From a virus, in the IMG/VR virus record IMGVR_UViG_3300045988_099276, positions 64,001 through 128,000 of that record: DNA of 64,000 nucleotides; one strand, given 5' to 3'. The position numbers were made by a program, and so were the translations under genes. Shown here one piece after another: positions 56,116 to 63,860 of this stretch. Each line of letters begins with the position of its first letter. Positions within the stretch are counted from its first letter, which is position 1. The notes beneath the pieces are model-generated. The model made no database searches and had not been told where the DNA came from. It saw only the letters and a program-made list of their open reading frames with translations.

Positions 56116-57322
56116 CTTCTGTCTTAAACTCGGTCGTTAATCGAGTCCATATATAAATCCTATATGCTTCTCGTTTCCAAGAAGAAGAGACTATATTTTC
56201 TATAAAAATAGAATATTCTTTCGGATAGACTTCTATCCTATCAGAGCCAATCCTGATAGTCGTTGAACCTTTTACTAAATAGCAAAATGGCTGCGGATTA
56301 TCCAATTTTTATATCTTTTTACTATACCTAAGACATTACTCTTCGCCAATATTATATCACTATAATATTTTAGTAATATAAAACTCTAAGGATTTTCCCG
56401 CAATTTAATATTTTTCTTATAATTTAAATTATAAGCCCAATGTTTTTCTTGCTTGCATGTATACTTTATATTTTCTCTCTAAATGAACAGTAGATTTACC
56501 ATAAAGCCTATTTAAAAATTCATAAACAAAATCTTTATGACCAATCTCTAAAGCGTAAATATGAGCCGCTTCGCGTTCATAAATATTGCTATGTTCTTGT
56601 GTATTTAATCTTTCCACTAATCCACTTAGAAAATCATAAGTACCTAAAATAATAATTCTATATCTACTTTGTTCAAAGTCAAATTGAATATATCCATCTC
56701 CGTCAATATAGCCACGAACAAAATCGTATATAAAATAATCAGGAACTTGTTGAATTGTAGGAAATTTTAAAATGCTAGTTTTTGCTGGAACGCAACCTAA
56801 ATTACATAAATTTTGCTTAACATCATTGCTAGAAAAACTATATCCATAATATTTGTGTGTTCCATCTTTACACGTTTTTTCTTTTTCAAATATACTATTT
56901 TTATTTCCTACAAAATTTTGAAAAGCTATGACACTATCTAAATCTTGTCCTTGTAGCACTAAAGAAATTTCATTTTTATCCTTCTTAACAGACCCATCTG
57001 CATATAAGAATCCAAGCCAATAAGCAGATTCTTCTGAATCTATTGTTTTAAACAATTCTGTATTAACAGGTTGATATATTGATTGATTTCTGTTACTGAT
57101 AATATCAATATTATTTTCACAGAGAACTCTTTTTATAGTGTTCCAAGAAACTTTATACTCTTTTGCAATAGAGTTAATACTCTTATTATTTTCACAATAT
57201 GCATAAATAATAGCATCGCTATCTAACATAATTTTTTGTGCCATATAAGTGCCTTTCTTTAATAATTATAAATTTCTTATAATTATTATATCATATTTTT
57301 AGGCGGCAAGCAAATATTTATT
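56116..57322 (-). mobile_element. group I intron A in the tape measure gene, carrying a LAGLIDADG ORF upstream of the P element (boundaries about +/-10 nt)
   Basis: Core elements on the - strand: P AAATTGCGGGAAAATC (about 56392-56407), Q GGATAATCCGCAGCC (56289-56303), R GTTCAACGACTATC (56255-56268), S AATATAGTCTC (56188-56198). P/Q and R/S are complementary. Confidence 0.8.
56429..57244 (-). CDS. LAGLIDADG homing endonuclease (intron-encoded)
   Basis: Two motifs, YWLGFLYADGSV and VRGYIDGDGYI. N-terminal HTH-like segment INSIAKEYKVSWNTIKRVL. Confidence 0.85.
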   Translation of the reverse strand: MAQKIMLDSDAIIYAYCENNKSINSIAKEYKVSWNTIKRVLCENNIDIISNRNQSIYQPVNTELFKTIDSEESAYWLGFLYADGSVKKDKNEISLVLQGQDLDSVIAFQNFVGNKNSIFEKEKTCKDGTHKYYGYSFSSNDVKQNLCNLGCVPAKTSILKFPTIQQVPDYFIYDFVRGYIDGDGYIQFDFEQSRYRIIILGTYDFLSGLVERLNTQEHSNIYEREAAHIYALEIGHKDFVYEFLNRLYGKSTVHLERKYKVYMQARKTLGL

Positions 57323-57644
57323 AGGGGCTTCACGAGTAACAGACTCAATTGTAGCAATTTGTGCATTTAATTGGTCTGTAGAAACTCCAAGCGTAGCTGC
57401 TGCTGATGCAGCTTTCTGTGATGCTTCTGCCAGCTCTCCAACATCCGCAGCAGAAATATTTGCTACGTTAGCCCAAGAGTCTAGTGCGGCATTAAGTTTA
57501 TCAATATTATTATCAAGACCATAAGCATTCATGTATGCTGTGATTTGGTCCGACGTTGTAGCAGTATCTTGCTGAGAAGCATTTGCCAATTTAGTTGACA
57601 TCTCCGCAAGCTGCTGAGACTTGTTTAAGTCAAACCTTGTGTTC
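57323..57644 (-). CDS. tape measure protein, exon 2 (boundaries approximate)
   Basis: The frame is open upstream of the track ATG (NTRFDLNKSQQLAEM...). It ends ...IATIESVTRE(AP) before running into the intron. Confidence 0.65.
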
Positions 57645-57928
57645 CATACGATGCGCTAAATCGTATGCGTTAAAACTGCTAATAATTCCTTATTAGAGCA
57701 GACTATATCTTACCTGTATATGGATAGTGCGGTCATTTTGTCTATCCCAGGTATCTCTATTTCGATTGCGCTTGCAATCTACTTCTCCTTGACGGTAGAA
57801 TAGTCGTTGAACCTTCTCTTATGAGCGGGCTGCTGATTAGGCGCAAGCCCTTCCAGCAATTATAAGATTTTCAAGGCTGTCGCGTTAAATTAAATCTGTA
57901 ATACAAACAGTATTTTCAAACAACATGT
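57645..57928 (-). mobile_element. group I intron B in the tape measure gene, ORF-less (about 284 nt)
   Basis: P AATTGCTGGAAGG (57849-57861), Q AATCAGCAGCC (57828-57838), R GTTCAACGACTATTC (57798-57812), S AAGATATAGTC (57701-57711). The exon end AAUUUUU can pair with GAAAAU (U.G at the junction). P9-type hairpins lie downstream of S. Confidence 0.8.
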
Positions 57929-58593
57929 AAAAATTTTCCTTGTTGACCGAAAATAAGGGTACTATTCGTCATAGCAACAGTTGTAGAGCCAAGAGCCTTT
58001 GCAGCTTCATTAGCCTGCTTAGCATACTGAACCATCGAATCACGCGAATAGTCAGTAACAAGCATAATCTGTGTTAATGAATCATCAAGGTCTTTCGCAT
58101 ATTCAACAGATTGACGAATAGAATCAGTAACGCCGTTGAAAGCACTTGACATAATGCCCCAACGAACAGTGTTACCCATTGTATTAAACAATTTATCTAC
58201 CATTGAGCTGGTACTTTTAATACCAGTATCAATTTTACCTAATTGCGCAAGAACATCTGTAAAGGCAATTTTACCAGTAGACCCTGCCATAGAAAATGAA
58301 TTTTGTAGATTACGTAATGACAGTCCACTATCATTTAGCTGGCTGGTCAACTTTGTCATATCGAGCATTCCAATTTTAGTGTTAAAGCTCGAATTTAATG
58401 CTTTCTGAAATTTTTGAATATTATTGATAGCCGCAGAAACTTGTGTGTTATCAATAATATCCTGAGACTGCATTTCCTTTAACTGAACAGAAACTTTATT
58501 AAGCTCAGTCTGCAATTGAGTCAAACCAGAACGGTCTAATGTAGTTCGTAGATTATACTCAATAGTATTTGAATATTTACTAATGGTAATCAC
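57929..58593 (-). CDS. tape measure protein, exon 1
   Basis: GTG 58593. ...AKALGSTTVAMTNSTLIFGQQGKF, then the frame decays into the intron (track ORF 57916..58593). Confidence 0.65.
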
Positions 58594-61027: not shown

Positions 61028-61060
61028 AAAAAGGGTGTCCCAGTTAAGGAACACCCTTTA
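61028..61060 (-). terminator. rho-independent terminator after the major structural gene
   Basis: On the - strand: AAAGGGTGTTCC TTAACT GGGACACCCTTT followed by TTCTTTTT. Confidence 0.65.
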
Positions 61061-61202
61061 GCTTATTTAGCTACAGACCTCTTTAACTTAGAAACACTGG
61101 GAGTAGTTTCAGTTTCGGAAGTCTTAGTAGTCGAATCAACTGCGTTAGCAGTTACGTCTGAATGTTGTTCATCAGCCGCAGATTCAGTTGACGTTGCGGC
61201 CT

Positions 61203-61421
61203 TTATTCCCCCGCTGCTTCGGAGAAGACAGACTTAGAATACCAGCTATCTACATCGGAATCCTTTGTACGGCCCTCGTGACCAAGGACGTCCTTATTCT
61301 TGTAGTTGTGGGTTGTGTCAGTCTTATCAACAACCTGTAGCGTAGCCATAACCTTCTTCTTCTTGTTGAACTTGGTGTAGGCAGGCATACAGTCAATAGT
61401 GAATGTGAAGGTACTTGGGTC
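61203..61421 (-). CDS. major structural protein (capsid- or tail-tube-like), exon 4 (5' boundary +/-8 nt)
   Basis: (I)LDPSTFTFTIDCMPAYTKF... continues exon 3 (...FTFSMANNG). The track start is a TTG inside an open frame. Confidence 0.65.
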   Translation of the reverse strand, partial: DPSTFTFTIDCMPAYTKFNKKKKVMATLQVVDKTDTTHNYKNKDVLGHEGRTKDSDVDSWYSKSVFSEAAGE

Positions 61422-62361
61422 CAATATCTTTTACGCATTTGTTATATACGCACTACACAGACAGTAGCTTATGGTTTCCCATAAGTTGAGACTATATCTT
61501 CACCCACAATGTTGTGGGGTTTTTCATTTCGATTTAAGGGATTTTCACCCACCGCCAATCACTTGCGGCCCTATTCCTGTTGACGAATTTCACGTCTTAT
61601 AGGATAGTCGTTTAACTTTTAACTTGTCTTCTTTTACCTTGTAAAATGTTTCCTATATGTCTACGAGAAACATTATATTCATCTGCAATTTTTTGATGTG
61701 TCAATCCTAATTTTCTTAATTCAAAAATTTCTTTAACTTGTTCATCGGTTAATTTGCAATTTGTATTGCTTTCACCCCATTGATTTGCAGCTCTAGCTCT
61801 TTTTAATTTTACTGCATATTGTTGGTTTTCAGATGGGGTACACCATTCTAAATTTTCTAAAGAATTATTAGTTCGGTCACAATCTAAATGATTTACTTGT
61901 AAAAAATCAGAATTTTTATTAGCATTGAAAGCCATCATTACTAATCTATGAATACTATATTCTTTACAAGAACCGTCCAAGCAATAAAGAGCTACGCGAT
62001 AATAACCTACATTTGTCAATCTTTTTTTTAAAGGTCGTCCATTTAAATTATCGCTAAATACTTCACCTTTATCGCTTATAGTATAATAATCTTTTACGTT
62101 TGGTAAAAAATTATGTATTCTTTCTATCATATAATATCACCTCTTAATACTTCTATTTATGTAATAATATTATATCATAAAAGAAAGAAAACGTCAAGTT
62201 ATTTAGCTGCGGATTGTCCAATCTTTTAAACTTTTTACCATCTCTGAGTAGTTAATTCAGCCCTTGTTTAACAAGTTGGTATTTAAAAGCTCTAAGGAGT
62301 TTCCCGCAATTAGAAAAATACAATTATCTGCTTATTACTAAGCAGCTAGGCAACTTATTTT
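61422..62361 (-). mobile_element. group I intron E with an HNH endonuclease ORF between Q and R (boundaries +/-10 nt)
   Basis: P AATTGCGGGAAAC (62299-62311), Q GGACAATCCGCAGCT (62205-62219), R GTTAAACGACTATC (61603-61616), S AAGATATAGTCTC (61488-61500). The ORF stop TAA lies inside R. Confidence 0.8.
61612..62130 (-). CDS. HNH (HNH_3/NUMOD4-type) homing endonuclease, intron-encoded
   Basis: VNHLDCDRTNNSLENLEWCTPSENQ HNH motif. NUMOD4-like N-terminus (YYTISDKGEVFS). C-terminal HTH LGLTHQKIADEYNVSRRHIGNIL. AAGAGGTGA SD. Confidence 0.85.
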   Translation of the reverse strand: MIERIHNFLPNVKDYYTISDKGEVFSDNLNGRPLKKRLTNVGYYRVALYCLDGSCKEYSIHRLVMMAFNANKNSDFLQVNHLDCDRTNNSLENLEWCTPSENQQYAVKLKRARAANQWGESNTNCKLTDEQVKEIFELRKLGLTHQKIADEYNVSRRHIGNILQGKRRQVKS

Positions 62362-63051
62362 ACCATTATTAGCCATAGAGAACGTAAAGTTACTCTGGAT
62401 TTTACCACGAGGAATAACAAATTCAGCAGGAAGATCTACGCCAGTCTCTTCATCACGGAAGAGTGTAGACGCTTCAATGTAGTAGTAACCAGCGAAGTTC
62501 TCAGCATCAATCTGCATCTCGTAGGCTTCATCGTAATGAACCTCATAGCAGTCAATGCGGACGGTATCACCAGCTTTTACAGCGGCATCCTGCTTGCTAT
62601 CGCCGGGTTCATCGGCAGCAAGCTGGAAAGCGATAGTTTTACCTTCGGCTTGAATCTCACCGTGGTCGCCAAGGGTGGCGGCAGCTAGGGTCTTGCCATC
62701 ATTGATAACAAAGACCTGCTTGTCGGTGACAGCAGAAAGGTAATTAGCTTGAGCACCAGCACTATCAAGAGTAACAGGATAGATAGGAGCTTCTTTTGTA
62801 ACGATGATAGTCGCGCCATTGCGATCTTCATCGGTTAGCTTAGCGACAATCTTGTCACCAGCGGTTTCGGCAACCATATCATATGTAGCATGGACATAGA
62901 TAGGAGTTGCATTTTCACCAGTTTTCTTACCGTGTACTAGACCAGCACCAGACAGCATAGCGAAACTGGTAGGACTCATTAAAGAATCTTCAAGAGTCAG
63001 GGTAAGAGTCTTTTCGCCGTCCCAAGCGATAAGACGTGGATTACCCTTGCC
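62362..63051 (-). CDS. major structural protein, exon 3 (boundaries +/-10 nt)
   Basis: The frame is open upstream of the track ATG: GKGNPRLIAWDGEKTLTLTLEDSLMSPTSFAMLSGAGL... It ends ...IPRGKIQSNFTFSMANNG(KIS). Confidence 0.7.
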
Positions 63052-63338
63052 CGATATGTTCCGTCTAATTCACAAGTTTTAGACGCGCCTAAAGACAAGC
63101 ACTAGACAAGTCTTAGACAGCTATATTTCACAATATAGACCAGACTATATCTTATTCCTATAACTAGGAATCCATTCACTTCATGTCGTTTGACATTACT
63201 CCCAATCTGGGATAGTCGTTGAACGTAGTTAACTAAATAGTTAACTTTCGATGCTGATTTCCTTATACTATAATTAAGATGTTCCAGCAATTCAAACGGT
63301 GTTTACTTTAATATTACTATTAAAGGGGGTGGTTAAAA
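63052..63338 (-). mobile_element. group I intron C, ORF-less (about 287 nt; boundaries +/-15 nt)
   Basis: P AATTGCTGGAA (63282-63292), Q AATCAGCATCG (63249-63259), R GTTCAACGACTATC (63211-63224), S AAGATATAGTC (63143-63153). Confidence 0.8.
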
Positions 63339-63477
63339 ACTGCCCTGTGCATAAACGGTGGTTGCGGCACCTTCAAGACTGGAAGTCTTAGCGGTGTCGA
63401 TGTAAAGCATTGGCTGACCAGCATCGAAGTGCTGACCGCCGAGGTCTACAGATGTTAGTGGTTTAAATACTACATCA
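63339..63477 (-). CDS. major structural protein, exon 2
   Basis: Hand translation gives DVVFKPLTSVDLGGQHFDAGQPMLYIDTAKTSSLEGAATTVYAQG(S). No track ORF here because it lacks a start codon. Confidence 0.65.
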
Positions 63478-63726
63478 CAGCATTTTTATTGGACTATCTC
63501 TTCATCCTATATTCTAGGAGCTTCGCGCTTCAAGAAACGTGTCAATAGTTTCTCTACAATTTTAGTCTCTACACCCGACAATAATTTGTCTTGGCACGGG
63601 ATTGTCTTAAAGATTTTCCCCGTTAGCCGCATAAGCGACACCTCTTGACAAGGAGTTCACGAAGTTTAGACCGTTTTAGTCATTGATTACTCAAAGTCGA
63701 GACCTGTCTTTCTCCACTACCAGACC
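63478..63726 (-). mobile_element. group I intron D, ORF-less (about 249 nt)
   Basis: P GCTAACGGGGAAAATC (about 63612-63628), Q GACAATCCCGTGCC (63594-63607), R-like GAGAAACTATTGAC / AGAGACTAAA (63543-63570), S AAGAGATAGTCC (63491-63502). The exon end CGAGAU pairs with GUCUCG (terminal U.G). The intron ends in G (63478). Confidence 0.7.
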
Positions 63727-63752
63727 ATCTCGCGCACACCAAAACGATTCAT
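63727..63752 (-). CDS. major structural protein, exon 1 (26 nt; alternative end at 63724)
   Basis: TAAGGAGAAATCT-ATG AAT CGT TTT GGT GTG CGC GAG AT. Unspliced, it stops after 11 codons. Spliced, it reads MNRFGVREIDVVFKPL... Confidence 0.6.
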
Positions 63753-63860
63753 AGATTTCTCCTTACGTTTAGGAATTTGTATACATTTTCCTTAGTCATA
63801 GAAACATAACGCGCTAATTTCTATGTCTATTATATAAACGCGGCAAAGCCACGATTATAC

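Follow-up and report, generated by a model that had tools for sequence, protein, structure and literature searches.

The stretch of DNA analysed here, termed the window, comprises 64,000 nucleotides (nt) of the virus record IMGVR_UViG_3300045988_099276 (positions 64,001-128,000 of that record; all coordinates below count from window position 1). The minus strand carries at 63752..61203 a tail tube gene that we interpret as four exons of 26, 139, 690 and 219 nt separated by three self-splicing group I introns of 246, 290 and 940 nt, with a product of 357 amino acids (aa) after splicing. The whole reading, in which the source is an uncultivated ~146-kb human-gut siphovirus-like phage, is given a probability of about 0.88. 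The gene starts with ATG at 63752, located 6 nt downstream of the Shine-Dalgarno (SD) sequence AAGGAG (63764..63759; read directly from the sequence and identical in relatives), and stops with TAA at 61205..61203; an intrinsic terminator with a 12-bp stem followed by a T run (61059..61030) is found ~145 nt past the stop codon. Exon 1 (63752..63727) encodes MNRFGVRE and the AU of an Ile codon, its last base being U, and is followed by intron 1 (63726..63481). Exon 2 (63480..63342) supplies the C of Ile9 and the residues Cys10-Gly55, ends with GGC, and is followed by intron 2 (63341..63052). Exon 3 (63051..62362) encodes Gly56-Gly285 and is separated by intron 3 (62361..61422) from exon 4 (61421..61203), which encodes Asp286-Glu357 and the stop codon. 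The insertion points in the coding sequence are nt 26, nt 165 and nt 855. The G+C content is 31-42% in the introns and 46-50% in the exons, and every intron brings in an in-frame stop codon 3 to 8 codons past its 5' splice site. The unspliced reading frame gives MNRFGVREMVW and then a stop, i.e., 11 codons, and in the list of open reading frames (ORFs) of the window no single minus-strand ORF spans the gene. An initial annotation of the window had described the split gene with its early stop, short first exon, strong SD and terminator, all of which are borne out here; its in-frame joining of the exons is also correct, with the length being 357 aa (1074 nt) instead of the estimated ~355 aa.

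The exon-intron junctions were fixed by comparison with uninterrupted homologs. A search for relatives of the tube product covering 5.8 billion proteins retrieved 6,603 sequences, many of them uninterrupted. The best uninterrupted relative, P0001, is 357 aa long and 97% identical over its full length without gaps; the corrected spliced product differs from it at 9 positions. At the DNA level, the alignment with the intron-less gene of locus L001 is interrupted exactly at the three intron sites, so that each gap is a precise insertion; exon 3 is aligned without gaps at 92% nucleotide identity and exon 4 at 94% identity. Five close relatives that lack intron 1 (L017, L094, L092, L018, and L037) share an identical 49-nt segment comprising the SD sequence and exon 1, after which they continue directly into exon 2. 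The terminus of intron 1 is accordingly at 63481 (...AAAAUG), and exon 2 begins with CUGU, which restores the nearly invariant Cys10 (REICDVVF). Exon 2 was delimited by the intron-less homologs together with homologous introns in other loci; it ends at 63342 with GGC, and the extra Ser proposed earlier is absent in all homologs examined (AQG-GKG). The third junction is 62362/61421 (NNG/DPS), and the corresponding insertion site in the intron-less L001 gene reads AATAATGGT/GACCC. The initial annotation had the third junction exactly, whereas its end points for intron 1 (63478) and exon 2 (63339) were each displaced by 3 nt. The ligated junctions are predicted to read GCGCGAGAU/CUGUGAUG, GCACAGGGC/GGCAAGGG, and AAUAAUGGU/GACCCAAG. 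A collection of 15 billion proteins contained no exact match to any of three junction variants of the spliced protein, either as a cDNA-like record or as an identical intron-less allele, and the spliced junction-1 DNA had no match in IMG/VR.

By sequence homology the gene product is a YomU_Tube-family tail tube protein, which sharpens its previous description as a major structural protein. The family PF27173 (YomU_Tube) is precomputed on P0001 and on 120 of 120 relatives among the matches listed, and the product matches phrog_2729 (E = 2e-46). In intron-less relatives, the gene lies in an SPbeta-like order with YonD, YonB, YomW, YomU_Tube, a 508-aa protein and a ~2,900-aa tape measure protein, and in distant isolates the homolog is annotated as tail tube or major tail protein. 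A Foldseek search with a structural model (pLDDT 64), built from P0001 rather than from the spliced sequence of the window, returned tail tube proteins as the best matches (8xkn, 9jgi, and 8ygm; E down to 5e-7). As for the source of the DNA, the window is 100% identical over the shared 6,389 nt to a 146,342-bp human-gut metagenome contig (ERZ916335), and an identical protein from intron 3 is present in six contigs. A megablast comparison of the 3-kb region with GenBank phages gave no close isolate; the sole match was 120 nt of intron core in a Staphylococcus phage. Matches to contigs of metagenome-assembled genomes are mis-binned and taxonomically scattered, Bacillota predominating and a few other taxa being represented. 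Gene callers report only the exon-3 ORF, as a 206-aa YomU_Tube fragment, and the endonuclease gene of intron 3, which means that an essential tail tube gene is missed by annotation in the phage of the window and in numerous contigs of gut phages.

The three gaps are assigned as group I introns on the basis of covariance-model matches and conserved secondary structure. To score the introns we used the Rfam model RF00028 (gathering threshold 50 bits), with a second, permissive search over the 3-kb region; matches were found inside each gap. Intron 2 reached 71.8 bits, above the threshold. Intron 3, the core of which is divided by a 519-nt ORF, scored below it, with 33.4 bits (E = 4e-6) for the 3' half and 18.4 bits for the 5' half with P4-P6. 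Intron 1, also below the threshold, scored 20.0 bits (E = 0.047 in the 3-kb search), and the match terminates exactly on the final G at 63481 indicated by the homologs. The intron helices were assigned by hand, and each base pair was verified by script. In all three introns the P3-P8 pseudoknot, P4-P6 and the guanosine-binding helix P7 occur in canonical order, consistent with the P, Q, R and S elements noted earlier in each gap; core pairs are canonical or G·U, and each intron has an omega-G at the 3' end and a P10 pairing with the 3' exon. The assigned helices P1-P9 and P10 are fully paired except for P1 of intron 2, which contains a C·A pair and one adjacent mismatch.

Intron 2 has no ORF and is IA2-like, with P1 = GGGC/ACCC carrying the C·A pair at the 5' splice site, a P10 of 2 bp, and a core consisting of P2 (8 bp, GUAA loop), P3 (7 bp), P4, P5, P6/P6a, P7, P7.1, P7.2, P8, P9 (GNRA loop), and P9.1. 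Intron 3, likewise IA2-like, accommodates an endonuclease ORF in its P6 loop and contains P1 = GGUAA/UUGCC (5 bp, U·G at the splice site), P2, P3 (UUUUUC/GAAAAA), P4, P7, P7.1, P7.2, P8, P9 (GAAA loop), P9.1, and P10 = GUU/GAC (3 bp). The mark of subgroup IA2, P7.1 and P7.2 between P7 and P3', is clear in introns 2 and 3. The ORF-less intron 1 is compact: P1 = CGAGAU/GUCUCG is 6 bp long with U·G at the splice site, P10 = ACAG/CUGU is 4 bp, P2 is capped by a GUAA loop, P3 comprises 8 bp and one bulged A, and these are accompanied by P4, a 3-bp P5, P6/P6a, P7 (GACUA/UAGUC), and P8. This intron has a 4-bp P7.1-like hairpin, a second (P7.2-type) hairpin that is only marginal, and no P9 hairpin. 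Its minimum-free-energy fold recovered P2, P4-P6 and P8, while the pseudoknot was not recovered (z-score of only -2.1). The P4-P6 motif of intron 1, GCUAACGGGGAA...AAUCCCGUGCC, is also found in introns from unrelated phages, e.g., in the terminase gene of L083, and the P5 helices of these intron-1-like cores show compensatory changes (UCU/AGA, CCA/UGG, GGAU/AUCC, and CCU/AGG).

The ORF of intron 3 (62130..61612, minus strand), placed between P6 and P7, encodes a 172-aa protein with NUMOD4 and HNH_3 domains and a C-terminal helix-turn-helix. The HNH_3 and NUMOD4 matches scored 38.7 bits and 26.7 bits against Pfam cut-offs of 24.8 and 23.4 bits, respectively, and the protein also matches phrog_59 (E = 2e-41) and I-HmuI (PDB 1U3E; E = 1.4e-10). 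By this homology it is a predicted I-HmuI-like homing endonuclease, of the same family and of similar size to the 174-aa enzyme from the DNA polymerase intron of Bacillus phage SPO1. The host gene is different, i.e., DNA polymerase in SPO1 and tail tube here, and nicking by the present enzyme is predicted from homology. The ORF is preceded by a GAGG-type SD sequence and, directly upstream, by a promoter-like site inside intron 3 (62197..62169, minus strand; TTGACG, 17 nt, TATAAT with TG; 11 of 12 matches). This site is a consensus match only, and the region overall has no excess of such sites relative to shuffled sequence.

U·G is the near-universal pair at the 5' splice site of group I introns. 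We compared the exon end and the internal guide sequence of intron 2 among loci with an intron at the same site. In the L003-type intron 2, the exon end CAGGGU faces the guide UGCCC, giving the canonical U·G; this combination of U at position -1 with a guide G is carried by L003, L019, L025, L090, L091, and L095. In the window (= L088), L017, L092, L030/L093, and L094, the exon ends with CAGGGC and the guide reads (U/C)ACCC, which sets C against A. The C/A state is also seen in the more diverged L053 intron, where GGGC is combined with an A immediately preceding the C run. In a third group at this site (L029, L031, and L034), the exon ends with GGU and a guide G is opposite the U by hand pairing. 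Mixed states, U with A or C with G, were not found in the site-165 loci examined, and the guide region of the window intron contains no G able to pair with the splice-site C. From the homology to the L003-type site it follows that the 5' splice site of the window intron is placed after GGC (63342), with the protein length of the homologs kept, and that the cleavage-site pair appears to be C·A instead of U·G. The Gly55 codon of intron-less alleles is GGT in 40 loci and GGC in 12, and the latter include L018 and L037, close relatives of the window clade. Since these intron-less alleles already have GGC, the C at -1 probably represents the resident allele, to which the guide sequence adapted by acquiring A. 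The tube gene remains under purifying selection in carriers of this intron, as exon 3 of the window and L030, both with C·A, differ by 50 synonymous and 11 non-synonymous codon changes.

The C·A pair would probably act as a protonated C·A+ wobble, isosteric with U·G. PMC5769748, with reference to Doudna et al. (1989), states that G·U in P1 of group I introns can be substituted by C·A+, the two pairs being isosteric, and an engineered C·A was tolerated experimentally in Tetrahymena. Among natural exceptions, the title of Hur and Waring (1995), as cited in PMC6468297, refers to C·G in two fungal mitochondrial introns. In contrast to the natural C·G of fungi and the engineered C·A of Tetrahymena, C·A is here apparently the natural state of a phage intron lineage in which exon and guide have changed together. 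A limited literature search found no report of a natural C·A splice-site case. We regard it as an even bet that intron 2 belongs to a natural group I lineage that cleaves at a protonated C·A wobble, its guide G having been changed to A in adaptation to a host allele with the GGC codon. If true, an essential virion gene could be spliced in a pH- or Mg2+-dependent manner, and the lineage would confirm, as a rare natural case, that what the ribozyme recognises at the 5' splice site is the geometry of the wobble and not the identity of the bases; the paired change from U·G to C·A, if confirmed, would be the natural counterpart of a classic result of ribozyme mutagenesis.

Based on these data, we propose the following scheme. 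The gene would be transcribed into a pre-mRNA of ~2.55 kb, with the introns at coding nt 26, 165, and 855. Each intron would fold into a group I core, base-pair through its internal guide sequence with the 3' end of the preceding exon in P1 and with the 5' end of the following exon in P10, and be removed by two guanosine-initiated transesterifications. The ligated 1074-nt ORF would then be translated into the 357-aa tube protein, whereas unspliced RNA would give only short peptides because of the early in-frame stops in every intron, and virion production would be expected to depend on splicing. The HNH enzyme of intron 3, whose gene has its own promoter-like site and SD sequence, presumably nicks or cuts intron-less alleles of co-infecting relatives and drives homing. 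Intron 2 would splice after GGC, having settled in a clade in which GGC was the resident Gly55 codon, with the change of the guide G to A following.

Several observations weigh against this interpretation. Splicing of all three introns is predicted from the DNA sequence. A homolog of intron 1 at the same site was found in none of the loci fetched; the cores retrieved by pattern scans of IMG/VR were related but lay in different genes of different phages (the L083 terminase; L142-L158), none at the same site. The structure proposed for intron 1 is drawn from a single sequence and the family resemblance of P4-P6, and this intron combines a low covariance score with a 3-bp P5 and the lack of P9. 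In intron 2, P1 is short (3 G-C pairs and the C·A), P10 has only 2 bp, and a C run in the region permits other pairing registers. At neutral pH, C·A should be the weaker pair compared with U·G, and one or two evolutionary events may be enough to account for the pattern of U/G versus C/A among loci. Confidence in the structural model of P0001 is modest (pLDDT 64), with TM-scores of 0.2-0.36.

The low score and minimal architecture of intron 1 and the non-canonical C·A of intron 2 also fit an alternative, which we consider unlikely, that at least one intron, most probably 1 or 2, is no longer self-splicing, so that the gene is dead or relies on a host or phage protein cofactor. A precedent is provided by the phages of Bastillevirinae, in which four of eight spliced introns did so only in infected cells and not in vitro (PMC11878797). 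Loss of self-splicing is at odds with an essential tube protein for which no second copy was seen, with the purifying selection on exons among carriers of the C·A intron, with the identical arrangement in six assemblies of the ~146-kb genome, and with core helices that are all intact. Slightly less probable is splicing of intron 2 after AGU (63339), as in the earlier junction, which would restore the canonical U at -1, keep the reading frame and add one Ser (AQGSGKG). In our reading, GGGCAGU pairs with ACCACCC at 5 of 7 positions, but this leaves two internal mismatches and sets the U opposite A, not G. The extra residue would be present in no aligned homolog, Gly55 and Gly56 being invariant and adjacent, and the canonical U·G of the homologous L003-type intron falls at the equivalent of 63342. 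Separate small genes or an assembly artefact, with the intervening DNA representing remnants of unrelated mobile elements, can be practically dismissed even though gene callers annotate only the 206-aa exon-3 fragment and the HNH gene, because exons 1, 2, and 4 lack a start codon or ribosome-binding site of their own, the joined product and uninterrupted homologs are colinear, ribozyme cores occupy the gaps, and the exact sequence is reproduced in an independent ENA assembly.

The four-exon tube gene can be compared with known multi-intron phage genes. As summarised in PMC10136302, Landthaler and Shub (1999) first described three group I introns in one phage gene, orf142 of Staphylococcus phage Twort, the precedent named in the initial annotation. 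The two genes are alike in having three introns, IA2-type cores and very short exons (23 nt in Twort, 26 nt here). They differ in the host gene, here one for a YomU-type tail tube protein in a large siphovirus-like phage of the gut, and in that the three introns of the window are not close mutual copies, one of them having an HNH ORF and one the C·A pair. The rarity claimed earlier for such genes was overstated: in Bastillevirinae, two or three group I introns per gene occur in DNA polymerase and terminase genes (PMC11878797), and two further loci of the tube family, L030 and L053, apparently have three insertions each. The Bastillevirinae introns resemble the present ones in coming from phages of Bacillota, in mostly having IA2/IA3-like cores, and in cores divided by a loop encoding a phrog_59 HNH/NUMOD4 endonuclease; they are found in genes for DNA polymerase, terminase, thymidylate synthase, and ribonucleotide reductase, with none reported in a tail tube gene (PMC11878797). 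The td, nrdB, and sunY introns of T4 are also IA2 phage introns with P7.1/P7.2, an ORF looped from a peripheral helix and early in-frame stops, but they reside in nucleotide-metabolism genes at one intron per gene, with endonucleases of the GIY-YIG or other types. A limited literature search turned up no tail tube gene described as carrying a group I intron. With multi-intron phage genes already known, the most unusual feature here is the apparent natural C·A splice-site pair; the locus also extends such genes from replication and packaging functions to a tail structural gene of uncultivated human-gut phages.

We surveyed 80-odd related loci for introns in the tube-gene family; four of the sites (nt 17, aa 55, aa 285, and aa 288) were placed at the nucleotide level, and the others were taken from tblastn breaks. 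Insertions occur at about eight positions, namely nt 17, nt 26, aa 55, aa 66/67, aa 73/74, ~aa 279, aa 285, and aa 288. The nt 26 site is occupied only in the window, and the aa 285 site in the window and L053, which has a homolog of intron 3. Homologous introns at sites 165 and 855 are present in phages with diverged exons (L003, L017, L030, L053, and L094), with an HNH ORF in some only. The apparent three-insertion loci combine nt 17, aa 55, and aa 288 (L030) or aa 55, ~aa 66-73, and aa 285 (L053). With about eight sites occupied in varied combinations, the family lends itself to studies of homing, co-conversion and the loss of ORFs in a natural setting.

A number of further observations were made in this family. 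A group I intron encoding a LAGLIDADG protein is inserted after nt 17, leaving a first exon of 17 nt, in L004, L026, L030, L033, L045, L075, and L077; this site is 9 nt upstream of that of intron 1. The aa 288 site, occupied in L002, L030, L032, and L037, is 9 nt downstream of the intron 3 site and carries a different intron, the P1 of which shows a compensatory change (exon CCAUCU with guide GGAUGG versus exon CCCUCU with guide GGAGGG). Locus L053 (2393..4000) has homologs of window introns 2 and 3 and, between ~aa 66 and aa 73, an insertion of ~1.2 kb, near which ~8 codons are unplaced and a micro-exon is possible. Intron 2 exists in two forms, either with an HNH ORF in P6 (~838 nt; L017/L030) or without an ORF (290 nt; the window and L094 = UMJE01008018.1), in which a short hairpin takes the place of the ORF. 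The cores of the two forms are 98% identical, which looks like loss or gain of the ORF within one lineage. Next to intron 1, the 49 nt upstream of the insertion site are identical between the window and L017/L094, and downstream, at 63480..63450, synonymous differences are clustered (ATC TGT GAT GTA GTA TTT versus ATT TGT GAT GTG GTC TTC); such a cluster is the pattern that co-conversion during intron acquisition would leave. The phage phAss-1 (L089, OQ749652.1), which appeared interrupted in tblastn, was rejected as an intron carrier: its distant tube relative is continuous, with an inserted domain, no intron and an annotated genetic code 15.

Downstream of the tube-gene TAA, the -1 frame stays open for ~46 codons (KAATSTESAADEQHSDV...SVAK; 61202..61065, minus strand), up to the terminator. 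Some tube homologs are 513-551 aa long with in-frame C-terminal extra domains, and these extensions are dissimilar to this stretch, which could be due to chance or could be a vestigial or frameshifted extension. The tape-measure gene further downstream has two insertions relative to the intron-less L001 locus, 57936..57635 and 57322..56116 (minus strand), located after aa 219 and aa 323. They score 52.6 and 39.7 bits against Rfam group I, and the second holds a 271-aa ORF (57244..56429) with LAGLIDADG-like motifs. Together with the tube-gene introns, they would therefore bring the number of group I introns to at least five within ~8 kb of the tail module.

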